Notes: generated by a model from the letters alone, not told the origin. A stretch of DNA of 64,000 nt from Candidatus Kapaibacterium sp. (GCA_016788785.1 JAEUSM010000013.1:56771-120770); one strand, 5' to 3'. Positions 24,248 through 54,305 are shown, counted from the first letter of the stretch. Numbers and translations: made by a program.

Positions 24248-25216
24248 CTATCGAATGAAGAAAAACCAAAGTAATATTGCAACAATAGTCGCTGCTGTTG
24301 TTCTGATTGCGACATCTTTTCCTAATGCTCGAAACGAAACTGCTGTTTCTAATTTTGCATCAAAGGAAAGAACAGTTGCATTTAATAAGACTGGATAAAA
24401 CAGCAATAACGTGTACCACATTCTATCAATTATTGAATGAGAATTATAGGATAATAATTGAGGAATAAGAGTGCTAATAGCAAGAATTACTATGAAACTT
24501 AGGATGTAGAGTGCTGTTTTTATCGTTGGTTTGGTTGTAATGTACAAAAAGTAATTGCATAACAAAAATATCATCAGCAATTTTGTTGAAGAACTAACAG
24601 AAAACGGAAATTGTACTTCGAAAGATGATATTAAGGGTATATTTTGAAATACCAAGACAGCAATAATAACCGAAATTGCAACAGGAACAATCGCTTGGAG
24701 TCGATATTTCCACGGATTTTGTTTATAGATTGTCAGTGATGATAGAACCAACAATACCAAAAGAATATGTGCTTGAGGCACTACTACTGATAATAATGAG
24801 ATAAGTACGCCAAGAAAAACTCCTTTTGTTGTAGTAGGAACTAACATATAATTGAACAAAAGGTGCAAATAGACTATTAAAGCAGCATACCAAGCAACCA
24901 AATGCCCACACTCTTGTAAAGAACGAATCAACGTAACGTTCGTGGAAAATCCAAGCGTTGTAAGTCCCAGAACAGAAAAGTATTTATATCGTAAACCTTT
25001 ACTAAAAGTCGCACTATAAAAAAACTTTGACGTCAATAACACTGTTATGATGAAAAGCCCTACATTTCCGGCAACCATCATCACCGAATAATCTTGCGAT
25101 GGCATTGTAGCAAAAGTAATGATACTTACTACAAGAAGAACTAATACAGAAAGTAGATAAAAACCTTTGACTAAAAGTTTTTTGGTTTTTTGACTTGCTG
25201 AACCTTTTATTGACAT
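24248..25216 (-). CDS. polytopic integral membrane protein (8-10 predicted TM helices), unknown function
   Basis: The 322-aa protein is hydrophobic throughout and lies immediately downstream of the CrtC-like gene and divergent from the GT2 gene. A CruF-like role is speculative. Confidence 0.55.
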   Translation of the reverse strand: MSIKGSASQKTKKLLVKGFYLLSVLVLLVVSIITFATMPSQDYSVMMVAGNVGLFIITVLLTSKFFYSATFSKGLRYKYFSVLGLTTLGFSTNVTLIRSLQECGHLVAWYAALIVYLHLLFNYMLVPTTTKGVFLGVLISLLSVVVPQAHILLVLLVLSSLTIYKQNPWKYRLQAIVPVAISVIIAVLVFQNIPLISSFEVQFPFSVSSSTKLLMIFLLCNYFLYITTKPTIKTALYILSFIVILAISTLIPQLLSYNSHSIIDRMWYTLLLFYPVLLNATVLSFDAKLETAVSFRALGKDVAIRTTAATIVAILLWFFFIR

Positions 25217-25287: not shown

Positions 25288-26442
25288 ATGATATTATACT
25301 ATCAATTAGCAATCACAGCCGCATTATTGATCTTTTTTGGAATTGCAATTCGGAATCTATTCTTATTCCCAAAAATAAAGAAATCCAATACGAATACAAA
25401 TATACGGACTTTCCCAAAGGTTTCCATCATGGTACCTGCCAGAAATGAGGAAAAATCAATTCAAGCATGTGTCGAATCATTACTTTCGATGGATTATCCA
25501 GATTTTGAAGTTATTGTCTTAAATGACAATTCTACTGATGCTACTGGGTCAATTTTAGAATCTATTGTAGAACGATATCCTGAAAAACTAACTGTCATCA
25601 ACGGAACTCCACTTCCACAAGGATGGGTAGGGAAACCATGGGCTTGCCATCAATTGTCGCAACATGCTAAAGGAGAATTATTGCTATTCACAGATGCAGA
25701 TACAGTCCATTCATCAGAATCTTTACGTGCCGTTGTAGAATACTTTCTGACAGAAAAAGTAGATTTTGTATCAATGATTCCATACGAAAAGATGGACACT
25801 TGGGGTGAGGCAACCATTATTCCTATGATACATTATTTATATTTTGCATATTTGCCGAATGATTGGATAGCAAAAAAACCGTCAGTGTCGGTTTCAGCGG
25901 CAAATGGGCAATATATGTTTTTCAAATCTGAGGTTTATCGAGCTATCGGTGGGCATACTGCCGTCAAAAACAATGTTGTTGAAGATGTTTTTTTAGCTCG
26001 AACAGTGAAAAAAGAAGGATACATAACAGGATTGATAAATGGATCGGAAATAGTTACATGCAAAATGTATTGGAATTTCAAAGAAACGTTTGAAGGATTT
26101 TCGAAAAACTTTTACCCTGGAATGTCCTACAGACCATTTGCAATGTTTACTTCTATTACACATTTTTTTCTGCTTTATATTGCTCCCGTAATTTTTCTAA
26201 TATTTGCTTTAGTAACTCAAAACTTCTCATTTGAACTATTTTGGTTGCCCTTACTACATTACACAATCTTTACAACTATTCGGGGGATAATAACCTATTC
26301 TTTTTCTATGCCAATCTATCAAATGTTTCTTCATCCATTATGTGCGGCTTTAGCCATTGGAATTGGCATCAATTCGGTTCGATGGTCTCGCTCCAAAATT
26401 CAATGGAAGGGAAGAAGTTATTCCAAAGAAGAAACGATTTAG
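25288..26442 (+). CDS. family 2 glycosyltransferase with C-terminal transmembrane extension (CrtQ/CruC-like architecture)
   Basis: The GT2 core is 'VSIMVPARNEEKSIQACVESLLSMDYPDFEVIVLNDNSTDATGSIL', with a 'DAD' motif in 'LLFTDADTVHSS'. The last ~100 aa form several TM helices, an architecture typical of carotenoid/diaponeurosporenoate glycosyltransferases. Confidence 0.75.
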   Translation: MILYYQLAITAALLIFFGIAIRNLFLFPKIKKSNTNTNIRTFPKVSIMVPARNEEKSIQACVESLLSMDYPDFEVIVLNDNSTDATGSILESIVERYPEKLTVINGTPLPQGWVGKPWACHQLSQHAKGELLLFTDADTVHSSESLRAVVEYFLTEKVDFVSMIPYEKMDTWGEATIIPMIHYLYFAYLPNDWIAKKPSVSVSAANGQYMFFKSEVYRAIGGHTAVKNNVVEDVFLARTVKKEGYITGLINGSEIVTCKMYWNFKETFEGFSKNFYPGMSYRPFAMFTSITHFFLLYIAPVIFLIFALVTQNFSFELFWLPLLHYTIFTTIRGIITYSFSMPIYQMFLHPLCAALAIGIGINSVRWSRSKIQWKGRSYSKEETI

Positions 26443-27671
26443 TGCAAAAATGATCGAATAATTTCGCCAATACGTTGCGATTCGCCAATGGATGGTTGAA
26501 AAATTTCTTCAATTCGATTTCTATTTAATTCTATCCATTCCTTTTCTGTCAAAACTTTTAGCAACATTGTTTCAACTTCTACTTTATTACGAACGATGCA
26601 AAGAACACCTGCTCTTTGAAACGTGGTAGCATCAGGAGAAGAGCTGACATTTGGTCCACAAAACGTTGGTATGCCATACGCAATTGCCTCAGCTGTTGAA
26701 TGCACGCATCTTCCAAATCCTCCCCCCACAAAAGCAACACTTGCAATGCTATATAACGAAAGCAATTTTCCTACAGTATCGACAATTACTATTTGATTAT
26801 CAACTATTTCCTCTTGCCGAAGTTGAGAAAGGAGTACTGAGTTAGGAAATACTCCTTGTAAACGCTCAATTGTTGCATTGTCTGGTTTATGGGGTACAAT
26901 GATACAATGAAATTTATCTAACAAATCAGAAGAAATTGAATGAAGGAGCATCTCTTCATCTTTCCACGAACTTCCCAATACTAACGTTGGTTTTTGTGGT
27001 AAAGTGTACCAACGTTCTACCTCATATGTTCGAACTTTTTCAATAATTCTATCAATGCGTGTGTCAGCAGATCGATGTACATTGGAACTTTCAATCAATT
27101 GAGTGAATTTATCGAAGTTTTGCTCATTGACAGCATAAATTCCTTCAGCATTTGACAGTAGTTTTTTCAAAAATGAACGTCCGATTGACTCCCAAAACCA
27201 ACTATTGGGAAATGTTGCATTCACATAAAAGTATGGAATTGATTTTGCAGAGAGTAGTTGTAGTAGATTAGGCCATATTTCATAGCGAATAAATACAACG
27301 ACGTCAGGATGAACCTTTAAAATAAATTGTTCCATTCCACAGATAGTATCTATAGGAATATAGGTGATAACATCCGCAAATGGATAGTTTTTTTGGTTAT
27401 CGTACCCAGAAGGTGAAAAAAACGTTACGAGAATGGAAAGTTGCTTCTCTTTTGAACGAATGTATTCTATAATAGGTTTAGCTTGTTCAAATTCCCCCAT
27501 TGAAGCAGCATGAACCCATAGAACTTTTTGATTGGCTGGAATTATAGATTTTTTTTTCGCAAATTCAAAGATTACTTTTTCACGAGATTTGAATTCTGCA
27601 AAAAACAAAGCCCCAATTTTGAACAAAAGCCAAAGTATTGGAGCAATGAAATATGTATAGAAAAAACCCAT
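26439..27671 (-). CDS. waaA: 3-deoxy-D-manno-octulosonic acid (Kdo) transferase
   Basis: The N-terminal membrane anchor is followed by the KdtA signature 'LWVHAASMGEFEQAKPIIEYIR' (compare E. coli 'IWLHAVSVGE'). The length of 410 aa fits, as does the GT-B C-terminal half ('VDTVGKLLSLYSIASVAFVGGGF'). Confidence 0.8.
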   Translation of the reverse strand: MGFFYTYFIAPILWLLFKIGALFFAEFKSREKVIFEFAKKKSIIPANQKVLWVHAASMGEFEQAKPIIEYIRSKEKQLSILVTFFSPSGYDNQKNYPFADVITYIPIDTICGMEQFILKVHPDVVVFIRYEIWPNLLQLLSAKSIPYFYVNATFPNSWFWESIGRSFLKKLLSNAEGIYAVNEQNFDKFTQLIESSNVHRSADTRIDRIIEKVRTYEVERWYTLPQKPTLVLGSSWKDEEMLLHSISSDLLDKFHCIIVPHKPDNATIERLQGVFPNSVLLSQLRQEEIVDNQIVIVDTVGKLLSLYSIASVAFVGGGFGRCVHSTAEAIAYGIPTFCGPNVSSSPDATTFQRAGVLCIVRNKVEVETMLLKVLTEKEWIELNRNRIEEIFQPSIGESQRIGEIIRSFLH

Positions 27672-32737: not shown

Positions 32738-32768
32738 GGGGCGAAAGAAATTTCGCCCCTTTTTTTTG
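32738..32768 (+). terminator. intrinsic terminator (module F hairpin GGGGCGAAA-GAAA-TTTCGCCCC followed by a T8 run)
   Basis: The sequence 'ggggcgaaagaaatttcgcccctttttttt' lies 60 nt after the flotillin stop. The identical element recurs at 34690. Confidence 0.8.
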
Positions 32769-33024
32769 TGTTCGGTCTTTCACGATGGGTTAAAACCCAT
32801 CGCTACAAAAGGAAGCCCCTTCAGGGCTTGACCGGAAAACAGTAAAGACAGTGTCAGAAGATAAGTTCCCCGCTTGAGGGGTGCCACCGGTCACTGAGCG
32901 TAGTCGAAGTGTGGCGGGGTGGAATCTGAAGAAAATCTTCCTCTCCCCTTTGAGGGAGAGGGATGGGGTTAGGGGGTATTCGGAATAAAACGGGCAACCG
33001 TAAATGTTGCCCGTACTTTTTTTG
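32738..33024. repeat. GC-rich mosaic hairpin array 5
   Basis: Terminator module F is followed by the hairpin 'gatgggttaaaacccatc' (32783-32800) and module G 'gccccttcagggcttgacc' (32813-32834). Module E 'ccccgcttgagggg' is at 32869-32882 and module D (reverse complement) at 32882-32925. Module A 'cctctcccctttgagggagagggatggggttaggggg' is at 32938-32975, and the terminator-like 'acgggcaaccgtaaatgttgcccgt' plus a T7 run is at 32990-33024. Confidence 0.8.
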
Positions 33025-33116
33025 TTAAAAAGATTCCAACACATCGTAAAAGTCACCTATTTCATTTGATATTTTTGAATTTTAATTTTTTTTTCCTATA
33101 TTAGAAGTTATTAATT

Positions 33117-34661
33117 GTGGTCCATCAAAATAAGGAGAAAATCATGAAATACTTCTTTCTTTTATTATGTGCAACATCGTTATCCATTGCACAAGGAATA
33201 AATCAAAAACCTCCGTTTCTATGGGAAAACATATACACCGAAGGAATAATGAGAAGAGGAACTTTTAGGTTCTTTCATCCATTTGACCAACAATCTGTTT
33301 TAGTTATTAGTGAGCAATTAACTGATACTTCTTTTTCGCTTAGATTTTTTCAAAAGTATAATATACTTTCTGGCGAAATTGAGTGGACAAAACCCGGAGA
33401 AGTTGAAGGAAAGCCATTAGACATTCCAATCGCCCCAACTTTTTATTATCAACCGACAAAAGTTGACAATAAAATTTTGATTTCCTCATTAGCTAAACCT
33501 GCAGGTGATCTTGGCTCTACTTTTAGCTTTAGAAGGCAATTTTCTATTGATTCCGATGGAAACACTAAGTTTGAGAGGCTTTATGAAAACAACAGAGAGA
33601 TATTTAAGTCAAAACATCTTAAAGTTGTTGACCAGAATGAGTATATTTATCTTTCGGAGCTTATAAGTTCTGAACAAAATTTTTCAGATAGTACTCTTTT
33701 TAATTACGAGAAAGATGGTATAATTTCTTCTTACCCATTGAAACGCTTTTCTATGATGCATAGTTCACAATGGAATTTGTCAAATGCATGGAAAAGAGCT
33801 GATGGAAAAATTGATTTTATATTAGCGTCTTACAATGAAGATACTAATTGTATTTCATTTAGAACTCTTGATGTAGAAAAGGAAACAATATCAGATGTTA
33901 GTATTATGGGAGAAGAACTTGGTTTAACACCTGATGCATTTCTGACAGTGAGAGATTCTAAGAAAATTGACCACTATTATTATGTTGTTGTTGATGTAGG
34001 TTACTATTACGCTCCTGATAATATACTTTTAAAATTAGACCAAAATGGTAATGTGCTCAAACAAACTGGTTTTAGTGGTTACTCATCTACATGGGGTATG
34101 GAAAAAGGTCCAAATAACTCTATCATCTTGTATGGAGGTACATTTATACCAAATGAAAATCCTAACACCAAAACTAACCAATGGATTGCTCAATTTGATA
34201 CCGAATTGAATAAAATGAATGAGTTTATTTGGGGTACAAACGAAGTTGACATTACAACAGTTGCTACTTATTTTGACGGTGTAGGGTTACTTACCGGTGG
34301 TTTTTATAATAAAAACGATAAAAATTATACATGTACACCTCAAATTGGTCTCATCCCTGAATCTGTGTTTTTGGATGTGTCTTCTGTTGCTGAAAAAAAA
34401 TCAGAAACACTTACAATGCAAATTGTAGAAGATGCTTCTGCAAATTCCTCTTTAGTAGTGAATTCTAAACATCAGCAAACAGTTACTATTAATTTACTTG
34501 ATGCTAATGGAAGATTGGTATCTGTTGTTTCAACAGGAATTCTTTCAGAAGGTGAAAACCGATTTACCTTACCAACATCACTCTCGAATGGAATGTATCT
34601 GGTGAGTTGTGAGCAAAATGGTACTATACTTAGCTCTGAAAAATTCATTATCAAAAAATAG
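33117..34661 (+). CDS. secreted protein with T9SS C-terminal sorting domain, unknown function
   Basis: It has a signal peptide ('MKYFFLLLCATSLSIAQG'). The C-terminal ~90 aa ('...VVNSKHQQTVTINLLDANGRLVSVVSTGILSEGENRFTLPTSLSNGMYLVSCEQNGTILSSEKFIIKK') resemble the Por secretion tail. An ATG at 33144 is an alternative start. Confidence 0.6.
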   Translation: MVHQNKEKIMKYFFLLLCATSLSIAQGINQKPPFLWENIYTEGIMRRGTFRFFHPFDQQSVLVISEQLTDTSFSLRFFQKYNILSGEIEWTKPGEVEGKPLDIPIAPTFYYQPTKVDNKILISSLAKPAGDLGSTFSFRRQFSIDSDGNTKFERLYENNREIFKSKHLKVVDQNEYIYLSELISSEQNFSDSTLFNYEKDGIISSYPLKRFSMMHSSQWNLSNAWKRADGKIDFILASYNEDTNCISFRTLDVEKETISDVSIMGEELGLTPDAFLTVRDSKKIDHYYYVVVDVGYYYAPDNILLKLDQNGNVLKQTGFSGYSSTWGMEKGPNNSIILYGGTFIPNENPNTKTNQWIAQFDTELNKMNEFIWGTNEVDITTVATYFDGVGLLTGGFYNKNDKNYTCTPQIGLIPESVFLDVSSVAEKKSETLTMQIVEDASANSSLVVNSKHQQTVTINLLDANGRLVSVVSTGILSEGENRFTLPTSLSNGMYLVSCEQNGTILSSEKFIIKK

Positions 34662-34689
34662 TTTTTTTTCTAATCAGTGTCATATCTTA

Positions 34690-34720
34690 GGGGCGAAAGA
34701 AATTTCGCCCCTTTTTTTTA
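34690..34720 (+). terminator. intrinsic terminator (second copy of module F)
   Basis: The sequence 'ggggcgaaagaaatttcgcccctttttttt' begins 29 nt after the stop of 33117..34661. Confidence 0.8.
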
Positions 34721-35005
34721 TATTACCCCTCACCCCAGCCCTCTCCCTCAAAGGGAGAGGGAGTTTACTAATAACATTCTCTAATATTTCAAAATATAGG
34801 TTGTTCCCTCGCCCCATTGGGGAGAGGGTTAGGGAGAGGGGGTTTTTCTTCATAAATGGGCGTAAGCAATACGCCCCTACAATACCAATAAACGATAAGT
34901 TCCCCTCTTGAGGGGTGTCACCGGTCACTGATCGTAGTCGAAGTGTGGCGGGGTGGAATCGTCATCGAAACGTGTAGAGACAGGGCATGCCCTGTCTCTA
35001 CAAAA
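34690..35005. repeat. GC-rich mosaic hairpin array 6
   Basis: Module F is followed by module A-prime (34726-34765) and module A (34806-34845). The hairpin 'gggcgtaagcaatacgccc' is at 34858-34877, module E 'cccctcttgagggg' at 34902-34915 and module D (reverse complement) at 34914-34958. A perfect 30-bp palindrome 'tgtagagacagggcatgccctgtctctaca' occupies 34973-35002. Confidence 0.8.
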
Positions 35006-35629: not shown

Positions 35630-36979
35630 TTGGAGCAATATACTATGTATACCCCTACATATTCTATACAATCAAAAGATGTACATTCAACGCTGTCGAA
35701 CTATATGTTAGCCGATGGATTTGACTATGTACTTGACGATAAAAACAGCAAAGACGGTTATTTTGTTGATGCACGTTCAGGGAAAAAATATCTCGATTTC
35801 TTTTCTTGTTTTGCATCAGTTCCTATTGCACTTAATCACCCAAAATTACTTCAAAATGATTTTGCTACATATTTGGGTTCAATTGCCTTACACAAACCCT
35901 CGAATTCTGATGTATATTCAGAAGTAATGGCAACATTTGTCAAAACTCTTTTTGAACTTTGTTTGCCATCAGATTTTAAATACAGTTTTTTCATCGAAGG
36001 GGGAGCATTGGCAAATGAAAACGCACTAAAAACCGCTTTCGATTGGAAAATTCGTCAAAATTTCCGCAAAGGGTACACCTACGAAAAAGGTACAAAAGTA
36101 CTTCATTTTCAACAAGCCTTTCACGGTCGTTCAGGATACACAATGTCATTGACCAATACTGACCCAACCAAAGTGAAATATTTTCCTAAATTCGACTGGC
36201 CTCGTGTAGAAAATCCGTTTATTCATTTTCCTCTTACTGAAGAAAGTTTGCAAAATGTAATTGAGGCTGAAAAGCGCTCTCTTGCACAAATTAAAATGGC
36301 TTTCCGTGAACATACCGATGAGATTGCTGCGATTATCATTGAACCAATTCAAGGCGAAGGTGGAGATAACCACTTTAGACCAGAATTTTTACAGCAACTT
36401 CGCACTATTGCTGATGAAGAACAAGCATTATTGATATTCGATGAAGTGCAAACTGGAGTAGGAATTACTGGTACAATGTGGGCATTTCAACAATTAGGTG
36501 TAGTTCCTGATATCGTTACATTTGGTAAAAAGATGCAAGTGTGTGGTATGGCTGTAACTAATCGCGTTGATTCAGAGCCTGAAAATGTTTTCAAAGTTTC
36601 TTCTCGAATTAATTCAACTTGGGGTGGGAACTTAGTAGATATGGCTCGTGTAACACGCTATTTGGAAATTATTGATGAGGATAATCTCGTTAATAATGCA
36701 AAAGTACAAGGCGAAGAATTGTTAAAACAGTTAAATTCTTTACAACAGGAATTTCCAGAGGTTGTTTCTTCTCCACGTGGGCGTGGTCTTTATTGTGCAT
36801 TTACACTTTCAACGCCTGAATTACGCTCCAAATTGGTGAATAAAACATTTGACAACGGATTGTTTGTTATCGGTTCTGGAACACGCTCAATGCGTTTTAG
36901 ACCAACCTTGGATATCACCACTGAACATATCACAAAAGGTATTGATATCATTAGAACTTCTTTGAAAGAAATTCTCTAA
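35630..36979 (+). CDS. lat: L-lysine 6-transaminase (class III PLP aminotransferase)
   Basis: The segment 'KPSNSDVYSEVMATFVKTLFELCLPSDFKYSFFIEGGALANENALKTAFDWKIRQN' closely parallels lysine epsilon-aminotransferases such as M. tuberculosis Rv3290c. Further matches are 'FDEVQTGVGITGTMWAFQQLGVVPDIVTFGKK' and 'SRINSTWGGNL'. Confidence 0.8.
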   Translation: MEQYTMYTPTYSIQSKDVHSTLSNYMLADGFDYVLDDKNSKDGYFVDARSGKKYLDFFSCFASVPIALNHPKLLQNDFATYLGSIALHKPSNSDVYSEVMATFVKTLFELCLPSDFKYSFFIEGGALANENALKTAFDWKIRQNFRKGYTYEKGTKVLHFQQAFHGRSGYTMSLTNTDPTKVKYFPKFDWPRVENPFIHFPLTEESLQNVIEAEKRSLAQIKMAFREHTDEIAAIIIEPIQGEGGDNHFRPEFLQQLRTIADEEQALLIFDEVQTGVGITGTMWAFQQLGVVPDIVTFGKKMQVCGMAVTNRVDSEPENVFKVSSRINSTWGGNLVDMARVTRYLEIIDEDNLVNNAKVQGEELLKQLNSLQQEFPEVVSSPRGRGLYCAFTLSTPELRSKLVNKTFDNGLFVIGSGTRSMRFRPTLDITTEHITKGIDIIRTSLKEIL

Positions 36980-37064: not shown

Positions 37065-37973
37065 TTAAGAAAGTACTGTTTCTGGTTGTTTTTCTGAAAT
37101 TACTTTTGGAACTTCTTCAACAGGTACCTGATTTTTTATCCATGTTTTGTTGTTTGGATCCATTAAATCTTTCGGTACCGGACGAAGTTTCCAAATCAAA
37201 CCTAACCAAGATAACACCTTCAGACCATAATAGGTGATGTCAATTTCATACCAAAAGAATCCATTTCGAGCGGAAGCTTGAAAACGGTGGTGATTGTTGT
37301 GCCATCCTTCACCTAATGTAACCAATGATAGAATGAAGTTGTTTCGGCTTGTATCAGTGGTTGAATAACGACGTTTACCCCATGTATGTGATAACGAGTT
37401 AATAGTAAAAGTCCCATGCCACAAAAACGTAGTAGCAATAGCAAAACCCCAAAGTAATCCTGGCCATCCGAAAATGAGCGTAATTGCAATCGCATAGGTG
37501 ACAGGTGCAATTTGCCAGTATTTATTCAAAAATACTAACTCTGGAAACTTCATAAAATCACGAATCAACGCTTCATTATGTTGTTTGTAATCTGGAGATA
37601 GAACCCAACCTGCATGAGAATGCCAAAAACCACCATATTTAGGAGAATGGATATCACCTTCTAAATCAGAATGAGCATGATGATGACGATGATGTGATGC
37701 CCACCATAACACTCCTTTTTGGGAAGATGTCATCGCCATAAACGCCAAGAAAAACTGAAACCAACGTGAGGTTTCATAGGTTTTATGGGAAAAATAACGG
37801 TGATAAGCACCAGTAATAAAAAACATACGTAAATAATACGAACCAACTGCCAAACCAACATACCACCAGTGAAAGTCGATAAAAAAGGCTATAAAACATG
37901 ATAAATGAATTCCCCAAAATAACAAGGTGCTATTTTGAGTTAGTTGGTACGGAATGTACTTTTTGAGTGACAT
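37065..37973 (-). CDS. acyl-CoA (stearoyl-CoA-type) delta-9 fatty acid desaturase
   Basis: The three His boxes are present: 'HRYFSH', 'HHRHHHAHSD' and 'HNNHHRF'. The protein has four TM helices and is 302 aa long. Confidence 0.85.
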   Translation of the reverse strand: MSLKKYIPYQLTQNSTLLFWGIHLSCFIAFFIDFHWWYVGLAVGSYYLRMFFITGAYHRYFSHKTYETSRWFQFFLAFMAMTSSQKGVLWWASHHRHHHAHSDLEGDIHSPKYGGFWHSHAGWVLSPDYKQHNEALIRDFMKFPELVFLNKYWQIAPVTYAIAITLIFGWPGLLWGFAIATTFLWHGTFTINSLSHTWGKRRYSTTDTSRNNFILSLVTLGEGWHNNHHRFQASARNGFFWYEIDITYYGLKVLSWLGLIWKLRPVPKDLMDPNNKTWIKNQVPVEEVPKVISEKQPETVLS

Positions 37974-38180: not shown

Positions 38181-39659
38181 ATGAATTCAAATACAGAACA
38201 ACCGAAACTAATTACCAAACTTCAATTTGTTGATCTTGATGGCACTTTGATCACTTCAGACTGCCTTTGGGAAACCTTTTTACTATTTCTTAAAAAGAAC
38301 CCTTTTAATGGTCTAATTGCTATTTGGTGGTTAATTTCTGGTGGAAAAGCTCATTTGAAACATTCAATTGCAAAAAATGTCACTTTACAACCTTCACTTC
38401 TTCCATACAATCAAGATGTAATAGAATTTATAAAGGTTCAAAAAAGTTTGGGAGCTACCATTGTTTTGGCTACTGCAACGAATAAAAGCATTGCTAATCA
38501 AATTGCTGAGCATATTGGCTTATTTGACGATGTGATTGCTTCAGATGAAACAACGAATGTTCGTGGTTCAACCAAGAAGGAACTCCTTACAACCTACGCA
38601 AATGGTCAAGAGTATGTCTATTATGGAAATAGTACGGTAGATCTTCCAGTTTGGTCAGGATGTAACCATGCTATAGTTGTTTCTTCATCACAAAATTTGG
38701 TTCAGAAAGCATCTTTAGATGGAAAAGAAATATATCATATCCCAATCAACTCTTCATTTTTTCCAGCATTAGTAAAACAAATGCGAATATATCAATGGGT
38801 GAAAAACAGCTTAATTTTTATTCCGTTGTTTTTAGCACATAAGGTTAGTATTGATTTGTGGATTGATGGTTTGTTAGCGTTTTTTGCTTTCGGTTTTGCT
38901 GCATCAAGTGTTTATGTTGTCAATGATTTATTGGATTTAGAATCTGACCGACAACATCACCGCAAAAAAAATCGTCCATTTGCTTCTGGTGTGTTATCTA
39001 TTCCATTCGGAATTGCATTATTTCCTTTACTATTGGTGATTGCATTTTCAATTTCTGCAGTGTTGTTGCCACCATTATTTACGTTATTCTTGGGTATTTA
39101 TCTTGTCATTACAACCCTGTATTCCTTTGTGTTAAAAAAGATTGTAATGATAGATGTGCTGACTCTTTCATGGCTCTATACCCATAGAGTATTTGCAGGA
39201 GCAGTTGCAACAGATACTCCTATTTCTCCATGGTTACTACTTTTTGCTATCTTTCTATTTCTTTCTTTAGCATTTGTAAAACGTTACTCTGAACTTTTAG
39301 TCGCAGTTGAACAAAATAAAACGAAAGCATCAGGCAGAGGGTATTTCACGTCCGACTCACCGTTGATTGCAAGTGTTGGACCGGTGAGTGGATATTTGGG
39401 AGTTTTTGTCTTCTTTTTGTATATTAACTCCCCAGAAGTAGTTGCTCTGTATTCTTTTCCAATGCTCTTGTGGCTGGTAGGACCATTGTTACTGTATTGG
39501 ATTTCGCGAATTTGGGTAATAACCATTCGTGGCAATATGCACGATGACCCAATTGTTTTTACTATGAAAGATCCTGTGAGCTATTTCATTGGTTTTTGTA
39601 CATTTCTCATAGTTACTTTAGCAAGCATTCTTCCTAAACTTACTTTTTTTACACGATGA
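38181..39659 (+). CDS. fusion protein: N-terminal HAD-superfamily phosphatase + C-terminal UbiA-family polyprenyl-phosphate phosphoribosyltransferase (Rv3806c-like)
   Basis: The N-terminus carries HAD motif I 'LQFVDLDGTLITSD'. The C-terminal ~300 aa are polytopic and carry the UbiA motif 'VVNDLLDLESDRQHHRKKNRPFASG' after 'QWVKNSLIFIPLFLA'. The gene is operonic with a DprE1 orthologue. Confidence 0.7.
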   Translation: MNSNTEQPKLITKLQFVDLDGTLITSDCLWETFLLFLKKNPFNGLIAIWWLISGGKAHLKHSIAKNVTLQPSLLPYNQDVIEFIKVQKSLGATIVLATATNKSIANQIAEHIGLFDDVIASDETTNVRGSTKKELLTTYANGQEYVYYGNSTVDLPVWSGCNHAIVVSSSQNLVQKASLDGKEIYHIPINSSFFPALVKQMRIYQWVKNSLIFIPLFLAHKVSIDLWIDGLLAFFAFGFAASSVYVVNDLLDLESDRQHHRKKNRPFASGVLSIPFGIALFPLLLVIAFSISAVLLPPLFTLFLGIYLVITTLYSFVLKKIVMIDVLTLSWLYTHRVFAGAVATDTPISPWLLLFAIFLFLSLAFVKRYSELLVAVEQNKTKASGRGYFTSDSPLIASVGPVSGYLGVFVFFLYINSPEVVALYSFPMLLWLVGPLLLYWISRIWVITIRGNMHDDPIVFTMKDPVSYFIGFCTFLIVTLASILPKLTFFTR

Positions 39660-40216
39660 ACCAAGTATATTCATCCATTGAAGCAGGATTGGAACAACCA
39701 CAATTGGTTTCTTCCTTGCAGTTGTCAAAACAACGATTAGAAATTTTGCCTACTTCCATTGGTGCATTTACAAATCTGACACTGCTCAATCTTTGGCTTA
39801 ATAATCTAACAACATTACCCGAGGAGATAGCTCAGCTGCACTATCTTATAACCATTGATATAAGTAATAATAATTTTTTGACATTTCCAGAAGTATTATT
39901 TTCTGAAGGTCTTCAAAATCTAAAAAACATCAATGCCCGATTTTTACAATTAGAATCACTTCCGTTAGATATACAAAAGATTACAAAATTGGAAAGTTTA
40001 GACCTTACGGGAAATAAATTAACATCTTTACCTGAGGAAATTGGGAATCTGGAACATCTTTCGATGCTTCGATTAAATCAAAACCAAATACAAACACTTC
40101 CAAAGTCATTACAACATTGTAAGAAGTTGAAAGTTTTACATATTCAGAATAATCCCATTGTAAGTAAAGAAGAAATTCAGTCATGTGTTCCTGAAACGTG
40201 CGTAATCGTATTTTAA
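39656..40216 (+). CDS. small leucine-rich-repeat (LRR) protein
   Basis: The 186-aa protein has about six LRRs ('LTLLNLWLNNLTTLPEEI', 'LESLDLTGNKLTSLPEEIGNLEHLSMLRLNQNQIQTLPKSL'). Its start overlaps the upstream stop (ATGA at 39656) and its 3' end overlaps the DprE1 gene start by 19 nt. Confidence 0.6.
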   Translation: MNQVYSSIEAGLEQPQLVSSLQLSKQRLEILPTSIGAFTNLTLLNLWLNNLTTLPEEIAQLHYLITIDISNNNFLTFPEVLFSEGLQNLKNINARFLQLESLPLDIQKITKLESLDLTGNKLTSLPEEIGNLEHLSMLRLNQNQIQTLPKSLQHCKKLKVLHIQNNPIVSKEEIQSCVPETCVIVF

Positions 40217-41523
40217 CAATGTCGCATCAATCGTGGGGAAGAATTCCCAAAGTTCAACAAGAAGTCGAAACAATTCTTTGGAAAGAAGAGATAGCACATG
40301 TTATCGTTTCTCATTCCAATATCTTGCCGTATGGTAAGGGAAGAAGTTACGGAGATTCCTGTCTCAATGACGGCAATACTATTGCAGATTTGTCAAATCT
40401 TAATCGGTTTATCGCTTTTGATGCAGAACAAGGAATTTTGCAGTGTGAAGCCGGAGTAACCTTTGCTGAAATAATTGACACATTTCTTCCTAAGGGTTGG
40501 TTTTTACCTGTTACGCCGGGAACAAAATATGTTACCGTTGGAGGAGCAATCGCCAATGATGTTCATGGGAAAAATCATCATGTGGAAGGCACAATTGGAC
40601 ATCATATTCAATCGTTGTCCTTGCTTCGATCTGATGGTCAAATAAAAACCTGTTCAAAAACAGAAAATGAAGAATTGTTTCGAGCAACTATTGGTGGGTT
40701 GGGTCTCACAGGATTTATACTCACTGCTACTATCAAGCTCAAAAAAGTAACCAACGAATATTTTGCATTCGAAAGTATCAAATTCAAAGGAATAGACGAC
40801 TTTTTTACCATCAATGAAGAGTCAGAAAAAAACTTCGACTATACTGTTTCTTGGATAGATTGTAGTTCCACCGGAAAAAAACTAGGTCGTGGGATTTATA
40901 TGCGTGGAAATCACTCGACTACCCAACATCCTCCACTACCATTCAAAAAACCATCGCTCAAATTTCCCATAGAAGCTCCAACATGGCTTTTGAATGAAAC
41001 GGCTATAAAAGCATTTAACTTCCTCTATTATCACAAACAACTTTCAACATTTGTCAAAAAAGAAGTGCCGTATAATCCATTTTTCTACCCTTTGGATTTT
41101 ATTTTAGAATGGAATAAAATGTATGGTAGCGTTGGGTTTTATCAGTTCCAATGCGTCATTCCATTCGGTGACGAACGCAGTGGAATTAAAAAACTTCTCT
41201 CCACAATAGCCGAATCGGGAAAAGCTTCGTTTTTAGCAGTACTAAAAACCTTTGGCACTAAACCGTCAGTGGGTATGATGTCCTTCCCATCACCAGGGGT
41301 TACCTTAGCTCTTGACTTCCGCAATGATGGCGAATCTACTGTTCAATTACTGCACCAATTAGAGGAGATAGTTGCCTCATACAATGGCAAAATGTATCCT
41401 GCGAAAGATGCAACCATGAGACCAAAATTTTTCCAACAATTTTACCCACAATGGGAAGAATTTTCACGATTCAAAGACCCAAAAATTAGCTCTTCATTTT
41501 GGCGTAGAGTAACAAACCAATAA
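40198..41523 (+). CDS. dprE1: decaprenylphosphoryl-beta-D-ribose 2'-oxidase-like FAD-dependent oxidoreductase (DprE1 orthologue)
   Basis: Strong collinear motif matches to M. tuberculosis DprE1 run along the whole protein. They include 'SWGRIP', 'YGKGRSYGD', 'LPVTPGTKYVTVGGAIANDVHGKNHH', 'ATIGGLGLTGFILTATIKL', 'FYPLDFILEWNKMYGSVGFYQFQCVIP', 'GKASFLAVLKTFG' and 'NGKMYPAKD'. Confidence 0.85.
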   Translation: MRNRILTMSHQSWGRIPKVQQEVETILWKEEIAHVIVSHSNILPYGKGRSYGDSCLNDGNTIADLSNLNRFIAFDAEQGILQCEAGVTFAEIIDTFLPKGWFLPVTPGTKYVTVGGAIANDVHGKNHHVEGTIGHHIQSLSLLRSDGQIKTCSKTENEELFRATIGGLGLTGFILTATIKLKKVTNEYFAFESIKFKGIDDFFTINEESEKNFDYTVSWIDCSSTGKKLGRGIYMRGNHSTTQHPPLPFKKPSLKFPIEAPTWLLNETAIKAFNFLYYHKQLSTFVKKEVPYNPFFYPLDFILEWNKMYGSVGFYQFQCVIPFGDERSGIKKLLSTIAESGKASFLAVLKTFGTKPSVGMMSFPSPGVTLALDFRNDGESTVQLLHQLEEIVASYNGKMYPAKDATMRPKFFQQFYPQWEEFSRFKDPKISSSFWRRVTNQ

Positions 41524-41546: not shown

Positions 41547-42395
41547 TTGAAAATTATTTCGTATATTTGTAAAACATTTATTACGAAAGATGGAAATATG
41601 GGAAACAATTTTAATCCTGATGCGTTCAAACGACTCAATGATTTGGCAGTGATGCTCTATGGTGGTTTACCGGAAATAGCTCGTCATATGGGTAAAGCAC
41701 ATACGTATTTCTATACGTATAAGAACAAAAATGCAAGTTTTGGAAGTAAATTCTATGCTGAATTGGAAAACAAGGCTGGGATTAGTGCAAAATATATTCA
41801 ATATGGAATAGGAACTCCATTTGCCGAAACGGAAATGGGCTCAATGTTGCGTGCAAAATACGAAGAAGAAATTAAAAATATGATTGACCTTGACGAAGAA
41901 GCTTCATATTCTGTTCGTAAAGACAATTCCTCTCAAAATAATTTTTCTGCTGCATCACTGAAAGAACTCTTTGAAGCAACTCCACCGCCATTTTATGTTC
42001 CTGAAATGTTATTTAGTTTGCGAGCAGGATCGCCTACTATAAATCTTTCTACGGAAGTATCTGGTTATAGAAATATGTCTGGTACCTTCATTGCTACAAT
42101 TTCTGGTGACAGTATGGCAGATTATGGAATGTCTGATGGTGACCAAATTTTGCTAAAACGTACCTCTCAGTTTCGTAATGGTGATGTGATTGCTGCTCGC
42201 ATCAATGACTCATTGACATTAAAACGTGCAAAACAAAACAACTCTGAGCTAATTCTTGTACCGGGAAATAAAAATTACGAACCTATTCCTGTTTTACCGA
42301 CTGATGACTTTGAATGCTTAGGAATTTGGGAAGGTGGAATATTTCCTTATGAAGTGGTAAAAAAACTACGTCGTTGGGAAGAAAATCCTTCTTAA
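41547..42395 (+). CDS. S24-peptidase (LexA/CI-like) repressor with non-LexA N-terminal domain
   Basis: The C-terminal catalytic domain 'ISGDSMADYGMSDGDQILLKRTSQFRNGDVIAARINDSLTLKRAKQ' has the Ser-Lys dyad spacing of LexA ('VSGDSM...VKRLKK'). The N-terminal ~180 aa are unrelated to the LexA winged helix. An alternative start is 'MGNNFNPD' at 41598. Confidence 0.7.
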   Translation: MKIISYICKTFITKDGNMGNNFNPDAFKRLNDLAVMLYGGLPEIARHMGKAHTYFYTYKNKNASFGSKFYAELENKAGISAKYIQYGIGTPFAETEMGSMLRAKYEEEIKNMIDLDEEASYSVRKDNSSQNNFSAASLKELFEATPPPFYVPEMLFSLRAGSPTINLSTEVSGYRNMSGTFIATISGDSMADYGMSDGDQILLKRTSQFRNGDVIAARINDSLTLKRAKQNNSELILVPGNKNYEPIPVLPTDDFECLGIWEGGIFPYEVVKKLRRWEENPS

Positions 42396-42455
42396 GACAC
42401 GTTTCTTTTTTCTAAACCGTTCTTATAACATACTATATACGACACACCATCAAAA

Positions 42456-43772
42456 GTGTGTCGTAATTTTTTCTATTCTTTTTTTCATTTTCGAATGGGC
42501 GATACTTTTTCACAGTTTGTTAAGACATTTTCCTCAAAAGTTGATGAACAAGAAAAAATATCCTACATTGTTTCTATAACAAATAATCAAGATGATTTTT
42601 CACCATCCGGTGAATTGGAAATGTCTATTTGTAAATTTTATCTCAATAACACAAAACAGTTTTCACCTTCACTCGAACATCTCAAATTTTTACTTCGAAT
42701 TGCTAACATTTATTATCATTACAAACAGTTTAATGATAGTTTCACATTGTTGAAGAAAATTGAAAATCTTGCTAAAAAAAATTCTTTGCAAGAGATTGTA
42801 AATCTATCGTATTCTCTTCATGCCTTGCTTGCAATTGAACGAGGAGATTATCCTTTTGCTTTGCAATCTATGTTACAGTCAAAACCGATAATTGAAGCGA
42901 GTAATAATCCTTTGCGAATTTCTACTCTTAATAACAGTTTGGGAGTTATCTACTATCATTTGGGTGATCTCAATCAAGCGTTAGAGTATTATAAGCAATC
43001 TCTTTACAATAAGGAGGAACAAAACTATTCCTCTCAAGATTGCATCACCTTGATGAATATTGCTACAATATATATTCAACAATCTGATTTAAACTGTGCA
43101 AAAGATTATGCACTAAAATCACTTTCTGTTGCAGAAAAATTAGATATTGGCAATCTAATAGCGTTGACAAAGAACAAACTTTCTACTATTGTATCGCTTC
43201 AAAAAGACTTTCAATTAGGTCTTCAATTAGCCAATGATACGATAACATATTACGAAAAAAATGGACCACTGTTAGATTTATCTTTTTCATATATTCTTCG
43301 TGCAGACATTACTCGTGAATTGAAGGCACCATTAGAGGCACTTTCTGATTTGAATAAAGCTTTGGATATTGCATTACAATTGAACAATCTTAATTTAGAA
43401 GGTTCCATTATGCGATCTATGGCAATGGTGTTTTTAAATGATTTACAAAAATTTGAATCCGCTTTACGATACATTCAACGGTATTACGAGATTTACAAAG
43501 ATTCTGAGTTCAAAGAACATTGGTTGCAATCTCATTTTTTGTATGCGTTGTATTATTCAAAATCTCAACAACCAAAAAAAGCACTTCAATTTATTTCCAT
43601 TGCATTAGAAGATAAAGATATCGATCAATGGATTTCTTGTAAAATTGATTTTTTAGAGTTAAAATTGCAACTGAATCATTTTTTGTCTTTAAGTGAACGC
43701 AAAAAAACTGAAGAAGTTTTGACGCAAAGTAAAGAAATCTACAAAAATTCGTATAAACCACAAACAATCTAA
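42456..43772 (+). CDS. TPR-repeat protein
   Basis: There are multiple TPR-like units ('LNNSLGVIYYHLGDLNQALEYYKQSL', 'LMNIATIYIQQSDLNCAKDYALKSL'). The start is uncertain because several in-frame ATGs occur. Confidence 0.5.
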   Translation: MCRNFFYSFFHFRMGDTFSQFVKTFSSKVDEQEKISYIVSITNNQDDFSPSGELEMSICKFYLNNTKQFSPSLEHLKFLLRIANIYYHYKQFNDSFTLLKKIENLAKKNSLQEIVNLSYSLHALLAIERGDYPFALQSMLQSKPIIEASNNPLRISTLNNSLGVIYYHLGDLNQALEYYKQSLYNKEEQNYSSQDCITLMNIATIYIQQSDLNCAKDYALKSLSVAEKLDIGNLIALTKNKLSTIVSLQKDFQLGLQLANDTITYYEKNGPLLDLSFSYILRADITRELKAPLEALSDLNKALDIALQLNNLNLEGSIMRSMAMVFLNDLQKFESALRYIQRYYEIYKDSEFKEHWLQSHFLYALYYSKSQQPKKALQFISIALEDKDIDQWISCKIDFLELKLQLNHFLSLSERKKTEEVLTQSKEIYKNSYKPQTI

Positions 43773-50934: not shown

Positions 50935-52974
50935 TTACTTCCCCTTTTCCAACCAAAAGGTATTCATTGTTCCTTTGCCTTTTATGGAAATTTCTCCTCT
51001 GGGTATGAGTGAGAATTCTGGGTATGATTCGATTGATTTTGCAAATTGTTCGCTGATGTGGATACGACCAGCTTCTGAGTTAGATTCCATACGTGAGGCT
51101 ACGTTTACTGCATCTCCCCAGAGGTCATAGGTGTATTTGTTTTTGCCGATGATACCTGCAACGACTTCACCTGTGTGGATTCCAATGCGAATTTCGATAT
51201 CGTTCATATCCTTTATCCAATTGGTATCACCCAAATCTGATGGAATATTGACGACAAAGTCTCGCATTGTTATGAGAAGTTGGAGTGCAGCTTGGGCAGT
51301 TGCTTTTTGGTGATTTTCGAGGGGAGTTGTTACATTGCCTACTGCCAAATACCCATCACCAATGGTTTTGATTTTTTCTAAACCGAATGTTTCAACCACT
51401 TCATCCGCTTTTTGGAAGATAGCGTCAAGAAGATAAACAATTTGCTTTGGTGGTGCAATCGAGGCAAGTGACGTAAACCCAACCAAATCCATAAAAAGAA
51501 CAGAAGCAGTTTCAAAGTGGTCGGCAATAGGATTTTCGCCCTTTACTAAGCGATCAGTTACAGAATCAGGAAGTATATTTCGAAGAATACTTTCACGTTC
51601 TTCGTATCTTGCTCTTTCAACAGCTATTTGTTTTTCACGTTCAGCTGTTTTACGTTCATTGTCAAATCGATCTGCTTGTTTTTTTGCTTCGATGGATTGA
51701 ATTTCTTTTTCGAGTGCTATAGATTTAGTTTGAAATTCTAAAGCTTCTTTATAATGTTCTTCGTTTAGTCTAAGCTTATGTAATTGTTCATAAGCTTCTT
51801 TTCTTACAACTTTTGCACCTATTTCCTCAGCTAAAACTAACGATTTTTGAAGATACACTTCTGCTTTTTTTACATCATAGTATGTTGATTCTTTGGTTGC
51901 ATAAACAGACCCAATATTCCCAAGGTTACTTGCAATACCGACTTTATTCCCAATTTCTTCATTGATGTGAAATGCTTTTGAGTAATACTCTATAGCTTTG
52001 GGGTAGTCCGAAAGACTCTTGTAAACAATCCCAATATTCCCAAGGTTTATTGCAATCCCAACTTTGTTTCCAATTTCTTCATTGATATGTAATGCTTTTG
52101 TATAATACTCTAATGCTTTGGGGTAGTCTGAAAGATTCCAGTAAACAATCCCAATATTCATAAGGTTAGTTGCAATTCCAACTTTATTCCCAATTTCTTC
52201 AAAAATAGGTAATGCTTTTGAGTAATACTCTAATGCTTTTGGGTAGTCCGATAGATTAGAATAAACATTCCCAATACTCACAAGGTTACTTACAATTCCT
52301 AATTTGTTTCCAATTTCTTCAAAAATAAGTAATGCTTTTGAATAATACTCTAATGCTTTGGGGTAGTCCGAAAGATCTGAGTAAACAAGCCCAATATTCC
52401 CAAGGTTAGCTGCATTACCATATTTACTTCCAATTTCTTCACCGATGTGTAATGCTTTTGAGTAATACTCTAATGCTTTGGGGTAGTCCGAAAGATAATT
52501 ATAAACATTCCCAATATTCCCAAGGTTACTTGCAATACCAACCTTGTTTCCAATTTCTTCTAATATGAGTAATGCTTTTGAATAATACTCTAATGCTTTG
52601 GGGTAGTCCGAAAGATCTGAGTAAACAAGCCCAATATTCCCAAGGACACTAGCAATACCTCTTTTGTTTTCAATTTCTTCAGAGATAAGCAATGACTTTG
52701 AAAGATACTCTAATGCTTTGGGGTAGTCCGAAAGATTCCAGTAAACAATCCCAAGTGAATTATAGACCTCTGCAAGAGATTTGGCATCGTCTTGGATTGC
52801 TTGTTGTTCCAAGAGTTCGTAAGCAAATACCTTTGCTTCTTGATTTTGAGAAGTTCTCCAAAGATTATCTAATTTTTCTTTTGCTTGTTGTATTTCTTCG
52901 GGTGTCATTACGGTTTTGGAAGGTTGCATTGGATTTTGTCGTACGAATATACAAAAATAACGACATTCAGCCAC
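50935..52974 (-). CDS. TPR-repeat class III adenylate cyclase (paralogue 3)
   Basis: The 679-aa protein has a catalytic domain almost identical to that of 13925..15898 ('ILPDSVTDRLVKGENPIADHFETASVLFMDLVGFT...IKTIGDGYLAV...RIGIHTGEVVAGIIGKNKYTYDLWGDAVNVASRMES'). It contains about seven near-identical 40-aa TPR units. Confidence 0.85.
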   Translation of the reverse strand: MAECRYFCIFVRQNPMQPSKTVMTPEEIQQAKEKLDNLWRTSQNQEAKVFAYELLEQQAIQDDAKSLAEVYNSLGIVYWNLSDYPKALEYLSKSLLISEEIENKRGIASVLGNIGLVYSDLSDYPKALEYYSKALLILEEIGNKVGIASNLGNIGNVYNYLSDYPKALEYYSKALHIGEEIGSKYGNAANLGNIGLVYSDLSDYPKALEYYSKALLIFEEIGNKLGIVSNLVSIGNVYSNLSDYPKALEYYSKALPIFEEIGNKVGIATNLMNIGIVYWNLSDYPKALEYYTKALHINEEIGNKVGIAINLGNIGIVYKSLSDYPKAIEYYSKAFHINEEIGNKVGIASNLGNIGSVYATKESTYYDVKKAEVYLQKSLVLAEEIGAKVVRKEAYEQLHKLRLNEEHYKEALEFQTKSIALEKEIQSIEAKKQADRFDNERKTAEREKQIAVERARYEERESILRNILPDSVTDRLVKGENPIADHFETASVLFMDLVGFTSLASIAPPKQIVYLLDAIFQKADEVVETFGLEKIKTIGDGYLAVGNVTTPLENHQKATAQAALQLLITMRDFVVNIPSDLGDTNWIKDMNDIEIRIGIHTGEVVAGIIGKNKYTYDLWGDAVNVASRMESNSEAGRIHISEQFAKSIESYPEFSLIPRGEISIKGKGTMNTFWLEKGK
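51895..52765 (-). repeat. about seven tandem copies of a 120-bp (40-codon) repeat inside the adenylate cyclase 3 coding sequence
   Basis: The 120-bp unit 'caatttcttc...aatgcttttgagtaatactctaatgctttggggtagtccgaaagat...gtaaacaa.cccaatattcccaaggtta.ttgcaat.cc.a.tttgtttc' recurs with roughly 85-95% identity. Each copy encodes one 'NLGNIG.VY.(N/D)LSDYPKALEYYSKAL' unit. Confidence 0.85.
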
Positions 52975-53404: not shown

Positions 53405-54217
53405 TTATTGTTGTTCCCACCATGTAAGGTCGATAGAATCTTCACCTCCGTCAACACCAAGTACTGTTCCATTGATCCAGGCAGCTTCTTTTTGAGAAAG
53501 AAGTACTAACACATTGGCAACATCTTCTGGAGTTGTCAATTTGTGGAAAGGATTGCGGTTGTATGCATTAGCTATCAATTTGTCATTTCCTGGAATTTTG
53601 CGAAGTGCCGGTGTGTCAGTTACTCCTGCTCGAATAGTATTGCAGGTTACATTGTATGGAGCTAATTCTAACGCCAATTGTCGTGTGTACGACTCCAAAG
53701 CCGCTTTTGCTGCAGAAACCGCACCATAGGTAGGTATTGCACGATTAGAGCCAGAACTTGTAAGAGATGCTACACGCCCACCTTGAGAGAACAGACCTGC
53801 AGAAATGAGATCTTGTGTCCAATAGATAAGCGAATTAGCCATCACATCCATTGTCATTTCAATACTTTTTTGGGTAATAGAATCAGTTGGTTTTTCAGCA
53901 ATGAATGGTTTCAATGTTCCAAACGCTAATGAATGTAACATAAACCAAACTGCTCCACCAGTTTGATTGCAACGATTTTTGATTGCTTCCACAACGGTTG
54001 CACGGTTAGTAGCATCAGCAGCATTCACATTGAAAAATTCAGCTGTAACACCTTTTGCAGTTATTTCTGTTTTTAATTCTTCGACCGCTGCCAAACCTGC
54101 CGCTCTATCTAAATGAACACCAATGATGTGATATCCTTTTTCCGCCAATGCCAAACAAGCCGCTTTACCAAAACCGCTTGAGGCTCCTAAAATGACCGCA
54201 TATAATGGTGTACTCAT
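53405..54217 (-). CDS. short-chain dehydrogenase/reductase (SDR) family oxidoreductase, enoyl-ACP-reductase-like
   Basis: The dinucleotide-binding motif is 'AVILGASSGFGKAACLALAEKGYHIIGV', and the catalytic region contains '...YGAVSAAKAALES'. The start is taken at 'MSTPLY', while the ORF maximum is 54265. Confidence 0.7.
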   Translation of the reverse strand: MSTPLYAVILGASSGFGKAACLALAEKGYHIIGVHLDRAAGLAAVEELKTEITAKGVTAEFFNVNAADATNRATVVEAIKNRCNQTGGAVWFMLHSLAFGTLKPFIAEKPTDSITQKSIEMTMDVMANSLIYWTQDLISAGLFSQGGRVASLTSSGSNRAIPTYGAVSAAKAALESYTRQLALELAPYNVTCNTIRAGVTDTPALRKIPGNDKLIANAYNRNPFHKLTTPEDVANVLVLLSQKEAAWINGTVLGVDGGEDSIDLTWWEQQ

Positions 54218-54305
54218 TCTCAATCTTTCTATGTCTAAAGGTATAATTTTGAAATATATATACAAAAATACAAAGATTCTATCAAAATAGAAAGTTTATA
54301 GAAAT

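Follow-up and report, generated by a model that had tools for sequence, protein, structure and literature searches.

Among the described systems comparable with the locus reported here, ORF15 of Citrobacter youngae O1 is a fusion of a HAD and a UbiA domain which has been shown biochemically to make polyprenyl-phosphate-ribofuranose from phosphoribosyl pyrophosphate (PRPP) (Kelly et al., PNAS 2024, PMC11127046). Its UbiA part is the phosphoribosyltransferase and its HAD part the 5′-phosphatase, and the residues D18, N247, D248, D251, D255, R366 and E369 were tested by mutagenesis (PMC11127046). The same study describes a three-component system made up of the synthase, a flippase and a GT-C glycosyltransferase, to which a short-chain dehydrogenase/reductase (SDR) or the DprE1/DprE2 epimerases are add-ons that turn the ribose donor into a xylose or an arabinose donor in widespread systems (PMC11127046). 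We have analyzed a stretch of 64,000 nucleotides (64 kb) from Candidatus Kapaibacterium sp. (GCA_016788785.1 JAEUSM010000013.1:56771-120770), in the following called the window, which contains at positions 38181-41523 an operon of three genes coding for a HAD::UbiA fusion, a leucine-rich-repeat (LRR) protein and a DprE1-like oxidase. Judged from the sequences, this operon probably provides the first, cytoplasmic part of the known pathway to a lipid-linked pentofuranose donor, with the reductase of the pathway encoded elsewhere in the genome.

In the mycobacterial decaprenyl-phospho-arabinose pathway, which consists of Rv3806c, Rv3807c, DprE1 (Rv3790) and DprE2 (Rv3791), the 5′-phosphatase step is carried out by the PAP2 enzyme Rv3807c, which is unrelated to HAD. 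The chemistry of steps 1-3 is homologous in the window. Mycobacteria, however, have a separate PAP2 phosphatase and a cysteine at position 387 of DprE1, whereas in the window the phosphatase is of the HAD type and fused to the transferase, the corresponding residue is an alanine and no DprE2 gene is adjacent; in place of the mycobacterial decaprenyl the window pathway presumably uses undecaprenyl as its lipid carrier. The pilin glycosylation cluster of P. aeruginosa Pa5196/PA7 (PsPA7_6245-6251) and the rhizobial noeCHOP(+noeN) genes for arabinosylation of the Nod factor share with the window the same Gram-negative chemistry of a polyprenyl-phosphate 5-phosphoribosyltransferase (PPPRS) and DprE1, which leads to a lipid-linked D-arabinofuranose donor. 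Both examples had been named in a preliminary description of the locus and are indeed documented, and both clusters encode DprE2, which is essential in Pseudomonas. They also contain a separate phosphatase gene, a GtrA-like hub or flippase and a transferase (TfpW, NoeP), and none of these is found in the window.

The synthase fusion and the DprE1-like oxidase

The first gene of the operon (38181-39659, plus strand) codes for a bifunctional protein of 492 amino acids, in which Pfam recognizes a HAD domain at residues 17-157 and a UbiA domain at residues 216-454. The NCBIfam model NF006088 (PRK08238) matches the fusion with 595 bits at a cut-off of 351 bits, residues 16-482 being aligned to positions 15-480 of the 482 positions of the profile. 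The runner-up models are three decaprenyl-phosphate phosphoribosyltransferase (DPPRS) models with 117-145 bits, and the models for 4-hydroxybenzoate, heme-o and other prenyltransferases (UbiA/MenA/heme-o-synthase) reach at most 44 bits. The sole match in the PDB is the DPPRS Rv3806c of M. tuberculosis (8j8j, E=4e-26). The HAD part, roughly residues 1-190, is predicted to be a HAD-type phosphoribose 5′-phosphatase (PRP) with D18 as the nucleophile together with D20, and the UbiA-fold part, roughly residues 194-492, is predicted to be a PPPRS. A crude hydropathy scan found multiple hydrophobic segments, all of which lie beyond residue 220.

The DxDGT motif of the fusion reads F-V-D18-L-D20-G-T, and in the UbiA domain we find the motifs N248-D249-x2-D252-x3-D256 and K367-R368-x2-E371. 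In an alignment with 39 HAD-UbiA homologues the fusion agrees with all columns that have an invariance of at least 95%. The conserved residues include D18, D20 and G21 of the HAD motif I, which are invariant in the 39 homologues, as well as N248, D249, D252, D256, K367 and R368; E371 was read directly from the sequence. Compared with ORF15 of C. youngae O1 the fusion has the same HAD::UbiA architecture and the catalytic residues are equal, with D18 at the same number and the others offset by +1 or +2. By these matches and residues the fusion is a member of the NF006088/C. youngae ORF15-type PRP-PPPRS family.

The third gene (40219-41523, plus strand) codes for a predicted DprE1-like FAD-dependent polyprenyl-phospho-ribofuranose 2′-oxidase of 434 amino acids. 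The Pfam domain FAD_binding_4 is present, and the NCBIfam DprE1 model NF053785 matches with 372.9 bits over positions 6-429 of 449, leading by about 300 bits over the next family, sugar-1,4-lactone oxidase, with 64 bits. The DprE1 entries of the PDB match with 1e-75 (residues 41-423 against residues 50-438 of the chain) and the next family with 5e-12. According to these alignments the oxidase is collinear with the solved DprE1 structures and consists of a VAO-type FAD domain and a substrate domain. The residues Y60, H132, K134, W230, Q334, Q336, K367 and K418 of M. tuberculosis DprE1 are identical in the window oxidase and in 84/84 family members. With the M. tuberculosis enzyme the oxidase shares 36% identity and with homologues in many phyla 53-59%, and on the sequence level it falls in a large non-actinobacterial sister group of DprE1. 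At the position of N385 the oxidase has a threonine like most of the non-actinobacterial family, and at the position of C387 it has an alanine, which is also present in 77 of the 84 homologues. Cys387 marks drug sensitivity and is not a family-defining residue. Since this position is an alanine, covalent benzothiazinone-type inhibitors should not act on the window oxidase, and the predicted insensitivity extends to most of the non-actinobacterial family. The ratio dN/dS is about 0.07-0.10 for the fusion gene and 0.03-0.11 for the oxidase gene, and both are under purifying selection across three Kapaibacteria lineages with identical synteny.

The preliminary description had taken the oxidase for DprE1 and not for an alditol or gulonolactone oxidase, and the UbiA domain for the Rv3806c type and not for a MenA, UbiA or chlorophyll synthase. 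As the NCBIfam and PDB scores favour DprE1 and DPPRS, neither of the opposing groupings holds. It was also right in proposing that the fused HAD domain replaces the PAP2 phosphatase, as the experiments with C. youngae ORF15 demonstrate, and this replacement had already been published (PMC11127046). The equivalent of Cys387, which it had left to be looked up in the alignment, is the alanine mentioned above.

Gene junctions and the inserted LRR gene

The region 38181-41523 holds three plus-strand open reading frames (ORFs) head to tail, all three genes are real, and they are packed tightly enough to share one transcript. The stop codon of the fusion gene overlaps the start codon of the LRR gene by 4 nt in the sequence ATGA at 39656-39659. 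The stop codon of the LRR gene is at 40214-40216, and the ATG of the oxidase gene at 40219 begins 2 nt beyond this stop. The longest ORF of the oxidase would start with a GTG at 40198 and yield 441 amino acids. The orthologues are, however, 434-435 amino acids long and begin, like the public gene calls, at the ATG 40219; public assemblies record the oxidase with 434 amino acids, on contigs of at most 16 kb, and a product look-up in public records for the 441-residue version with GTG start returned no entry. The three-gene operon put forward in the preliminary description is confirmed in its ORFs, and their resemblances are far beyond chance. Of the two overlaps given there, the one of 4 nt stands and the one of 19 nt does not, since the GTG at 40198 is its sole source. 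Likewise the tight packing stands, whereas the claim of three translationally coupled pathway genes passes over the nature of the middle gene, which had been left undescribed and codes for an LRR protein.

The oxidase gene is followed after a short gap by a gene for a LexA-like S24 peptidase/repressor (41547-42395, plus strand), whose product has probably 265 amino acids with a start near 41598 as in the relatives. The S24 gene may be co-transcribed with the operon, since the only terminator-like hairpin (42438-42465) lies after the S24 gene. Rfam has no match anywhere in the window. Sigma-70 promoter sites are less frequent than in shuffled sequence, and such a scan tells nothing about promoters of the Bacteroidota type. 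The order in the window, namely a divergent desaturase gene followed by HAD-UbiA, LRR, DprE1 and the S24 regulator, is identical in the relatives L001-L005 (75% and 85% protein identity) and in the near-identical contigs L170 and L171. Proteins with at least 90% identity to the window oxidase include MBL8005068.1 of "Candidatus Kapabacteria bacterium", and a Kapaibacteria host is in line with the type IX secretion system (T9SS) sorting domains encoded in other parts of the window. The earlier assignment to the Fibrobacteres–Chlorobi–Bacteroidetes (FCB) group agrees with this match and with the sorting domains, Kapaibacterium being a member of this group within the Bacteroidota.

The LRR gene (39656-40216, plus strand, 186 amino acids) was identified by its matches to LRR_14, LRR_8 and LRR_4. 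The protein has no hydrophobic segment and neither a signal peptide nor a transmembrane segment, and is predicted to be cytoplasmic. L001-L005, L170 and L171 have in this place orthologues of 185-186 amino acids. A search of 5.8 billion clustered proteins gave two close homologues, with 89% and 59% identity, and otherwise just generic LRR matches, and none of the 160 other DprE1 loci of the survey described below carries an LRR gene. The gene has a dN of 0.29-0.38 at saturated dS, and its ORF is intact at 185-186 amino acids. All three genes of the operon are maintained, and the LRR protein is a lineage-specific insert or accessory, perhaps acting as a scaffold. A second and far larger LRR protein of 658 amino acids (LRR_4) is encoded at 60997-62973 on the minus strand, and the genome appears to have an enlarged set of LRR proteins.

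The common cassette and the reductase step

The oxidase has at least 8000 candidate homologues at E<=1e-20 across many phyla, and the top matches with 53-57% identity come from Calditrichia, Chloroflexota, Omnitrophota, Nitrospinota, Verrucomicrobiota, Bdellovibrionota and others. The view of the preliminary description that the pathway is only sporadic outside the actinobacteria is out of date in the light of this number, and the literature also calls it widespread. We surveyed 160 DprE1 loci among the matches listed, 80 from species-representative genomes and 80 from metagenomes, which represent relatives at 47-55% identity and comprise no close Kapaibacteria genomes. The ORFs of these loci were searched with the window proteins and with DprE2 of Calditrichia, and 139 loci had enough downstream sequence to be evaluated. 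A DprE2-like SDR follows directly after DprE1 in about 130 of the 139 loci (about 94%); this count includes four high-GC loci which had been missed by the greedy gene picker and were added from the ORF search. Anywhere in the locus such an SDR is present in 133 of the 139, and none is present in the remaining six (L040, L048, L055, L059, L144 and L164). At least 31 of 69 loci and 43 of 64 loci have the HAD-UbiA fusion directly upstream of DprE1. The SDR of the cassette matches NCBIfam PRK07102 with 290 bits at a cut-off of 267 bits, and the DprE2 model comes second. Outside the lineage of the window the closest relatives among the matches listed, the Calditrichia locus L006 (56-59% identity) and L167-L169 (56-57%), all carry the SDR. 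A cassette of HAD-UbiA, DprE1 and DprE2 is thus the norm in other phyla.

In the widespread, uncharacterized cassettes of the type HAD-UbiA/FAD oxidoreductase/PRK07102-SDR, for example those from Calditrichia (L006), Xanthomonas arboricola (L084) and Ktedonobacter (L013) the first two genes are orthologous to those of the window with 50-59% identity, and they have the same order and the same overlap style. In these cassettes the SDR gene comes directly after the oxidase gene, whereas in the window the LRR gene is inserted between the two enzymes and the gene for the LexA-like S24 protein occupies the place where the SDR would be. L006 also carries a PMT_2 GT-C and a flippase-like gene. The genes around the cassette, as judged by Pfam from two genes on each side in 80 loci, are heterogeneous: no GT-C family recurs among them, and flippase-like LPG_synthase_TM genes flank the cassette in 6 of the 80 loci. 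As the other loci do not regularly have GT-C or flippase genes beside the cassette either, it is normal that the window cassette lacks them.

Among the loci without DprE2, the Opitutales metagenome-assembled genome L048 (L048:9974-12632) has DprE1 followed by convergent genes for a UbiA protein without HAD and for a "divergent PAP2" protein (DUF212). Synthase and PAP2 phosphatase are thus split as in mycobacteria, here in a genome of the Verrucomicrobiota. In the related low-GC loci L059:281-1742 and L144:4521-5998 HAD (184-192 amino acids) and UbiA (300-301 amino acids) are separate adjacent genes, followed by DprE1. L164:3801-8401, on the metagenome contig Ga0068705_10000001 with 32% GC, contains a pair of HAD-UbiA and DprE1 flanked by ORFs whose N-termini resemble, by eye only, KdsB (CMP-Kdo synthetase) and LpxB (lipid-A disaccharide synthase), a context which hints at a link to lipopolysaccharide assembly. 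The gene after DprE1 in L040, considered as an alternative reductase, codes for a Peptidase_M15_4 protein.

Taken together, the pathway of the window would proceed as follows. In step 1 the UbiA domain would transfer the phosphoribosyl group from PRPP to polyprenyl phosphate, and in step 2 the fused HAD domain would remove the 5′-phosphate to give polyprenyl-phosphate-β-D-ribofuranose, as suggested by the biochemistry of ORF15 and the conserved D18. In step 3 the DprE1-like flavoenzyme would oxidize the 2′-hydroxyl group to the 2′-keto intermediate, to judge from the conserved catalytic residues of DprE1. For steps 1-3 there is good support from homology, from the conserved active sites and from published biochemical work on ORF15 and DprE1. 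In step 4, for which there is no gene here, a DprE2-like SDR of the PRK07102 type or another reductase encoded elsewhere might then form polyprenyl-phosphate-D-arabinofuranose. After flipping, this donor might finally serve an unlinked GT-C glycosyltransferase that acts on an envelope glycan.

Several observations weigh against this reading. The oxidase stays with 372.9 bits below the equivalog cut-off of 500 bits of NF053785, and the LRR protein has no known role in the pathway. A Pfam scan which took in all 48 ORFs of the window and a search with the DprE2 query found no DprE2-like SDR in the operon or in the 64 kb, and none is present within ±10 kb of the cassette in the Kapaibacteria relatives, so that an adjacent DprE2 is found neither at the window locus nor at the loci of its relatives. 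DprE2 is absent from the locus of a second Kapaibacterium, L040, as well. The only SDR gene of the window (53405-54265, minus strand) is 12 kb off and on the other strand, and its product is FabL/FabG-like; as a candidate for DprE2 it was rejected, as it matches neither the DprE2 and PRK07102 models nor the DprE2 query. In the Pfam scan the window also lacks a GT-C (PMT_2, GT136 or other) and a MATE, SMR or GtrA flippase. Compared with the systems of Kelly et al. (2024) the window thus has the synthase of the three components but no co-encoded flippase and no co-encoded GT-C, it has DprE1 without DprE2, it carries the LRR insert and its host is an uncultured member of the Bacteroidota/Kapaibacteria. 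A homologue search with the Calditrichia DprE2 brought up no protein named Kapaibacteria among the best 120 matches, which says nothing on its presence in the genome. The preliminary description had expected the operon to give a polyprenyl-phosphate-arabinose donor and had advised a search for a DprE2-like SDR and a GT-C. This search was run within the window and found neither, and the expectation was too far-reaching for an operon and a 64-kb surrounding without the reductase that about 94% of the other loci carry directly after DprE1. As DprE2 is absent locally, we can only infer the arabinose end product, which is not encoded here.

We therefore weighed other readings of the locus. It is extremely improbable that the families are misassigned, with an oxidase of the alditol or gulonolactone type and a UbiA domain belonging to the prenyltransferases of quinones or chlorophyll: there are weak secondary matches to sugar-lactone oxidase and UbiA/heme-o-synthase models, but these reach 37-64 bits against 373 bits for DprE1 and 595 bits for PRK08238. 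For the UbiA domain in particular the prenyltransferase models stay at or below 44 bits, DPPRS is its only match in the PDB, and with 1e-75 against 5e-12 for the oxidase this reading has already been refuted. The absence of a reductase could also mean that the donor is polyprenyl-phosphate-ribofuranose as in C. youngae O1 and that the oxidase acts on another substrate or in salvage or regulation. ORF15-type fusions alone do suffice for ribofuranose side-chain systems and no reductase is encoded at the window locus. DprE1-like genes, however, adjoin HAD-UbiA in many loci, where they are almost always paired with DprE2, all residues lining the active site of DprE1 are conserved, and the oxidase is under strong purifying selection inside the operon, so that we regard this explanation as quite improbable.

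A module of HAD-UbiA and DprE1 might alternatively be complete without DprE2, here and in a few other low-GC lineages, and yield a lipid-linked 2-keto-pentofuranose or a derivative of it made by an unrelated enzyme, in which case the LRR protein may replace DprE2. Six of the 139 loci and the lineage of the window indeed keep HAD-UbiA and DprE1 tightly linked and often overlapping with no reductase nearby, and the loci without DprE2 share no alternative neighbour. Elsewhere the linkage between DprE1 and DprE2 is the tightest, and the several independent contexts without DprE2 show the opposite pattern. Three diverged lineages conserve the LRR gene, which is translationally coupled, and a physical interaction of DprE1 with DprE2 is known from Pseudomonas and mycobacteria, where there is also a small hub protein. 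On the other hand, the DprE1 proteins without linked DprE2 do not form a distinct clade and have the same active site. They are interspersed with the DprE2-linked ones at 60-68% identity (for example L055 and L164 share 66-68% with the SDR-bearing L169) and therefore represent no separate enzyme subclass. Furthermore LRR domains have no redox function, the absence of DprE2 covers at most 64 kb, and we know of no glycan that contains a keto-pentofuranose. We consider such a module rather unlikely. Its more specific form, a DprE2-independent pathway of Kapaibacteria and a few other lineages that have only HAD-UbiA and DprE1, in which the 2-keto-pentofuranose is the donor or the substrate of an enzyme other than an SDR, and in which the co-translated LRR protein is a structural partner of DprE1, appears unlikely too. 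In L042 DprE2 is unlinked from DprE1, which shows that the SDR can be unlinked. Because of this example, the interspersed DprE1 proteins and the shared active site, a front end of the known pathway with an unlinked reductase appears to be the most likely reading of the locus.

The HAD-UbiA fusion, the DprE1/DprE2 add-on epimerases and their wide distribution have already been published, and in this respect the locus, as a member of a known pathway, is nothing out of the ordinary. What is new is solely its organization, which is specific to the lineage: DprE2 is missing from the cassette and the LRR gene is inserted. The analysis places the lipid-linked pentofuranose donor pathway in Kapaibacteria, an uncultured lineage of the FCB group, and predicts that their envelope carries a glycan containing ribo- or arabinofuranose. 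Should the genome truly lack DprE2, it would be a natural test case for DprE1 alone and a possible source of a new lipid-linked keto-sugar.

Other genes of the window

Just upstream of the operon lies the gene for a membrane fatty-acid desaturase (37065-37973, minus strand), preceded by a gene for an L-lysine 6-transaminase (35630-36979, plus strand). The latter, a class-III aminotransferase, was considered as a keto-sugar aminotransferase and rejected, as it matches TIGR03251 with 634.7 bits, above the cut-off of 520.8 bits. The synteny of the transaminase and desaturase genes is kept in the Kapaibacteria relatives, and we see no sign that they are functionally connected with the sugar pathway.

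A polytopic protein of 322 amino acids with about 8 predicted transmembrane segments and without a Pfam or NCBIfam family is encoded at 24248-25216 on the minus strand and is the sole protein of this kind in the window. Its gene is divergent from a GT2 glycosyltransferase gene (25288-26442) and near a Kdo transferase gene (26439-27671), and the protein may be an uncharacterized envelope-glycan membrane protein.

The window further contains three paralogous genes for adenylate/guanylate cyclases with TPR domains, with or without PAS (177-2531, 13925-15898 and 50935-52974), all on the minus strand. In L001 and L004 the gap of about 65-270 nt between the gene for a 297-residue protein and the SDR gene is free of called genes. 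In the window this gap is the site of 50935-52974, and for this reason the third copy looks like a recent insertion or duplication.

A composite intergenic repeat occurs in two copies (32738-33026 and 34690-34960) which flank the gene of a T9SS cargo protein (33117-34661). The ORFs 32790-33056 and 34609-34928 are spurious, being translations of this repeat. The copies share a 67-nt core with 96% identity and contain GC-rich hairpins with T-runs and the palindromes CCCTCTCCC/GGGAGAGGG.

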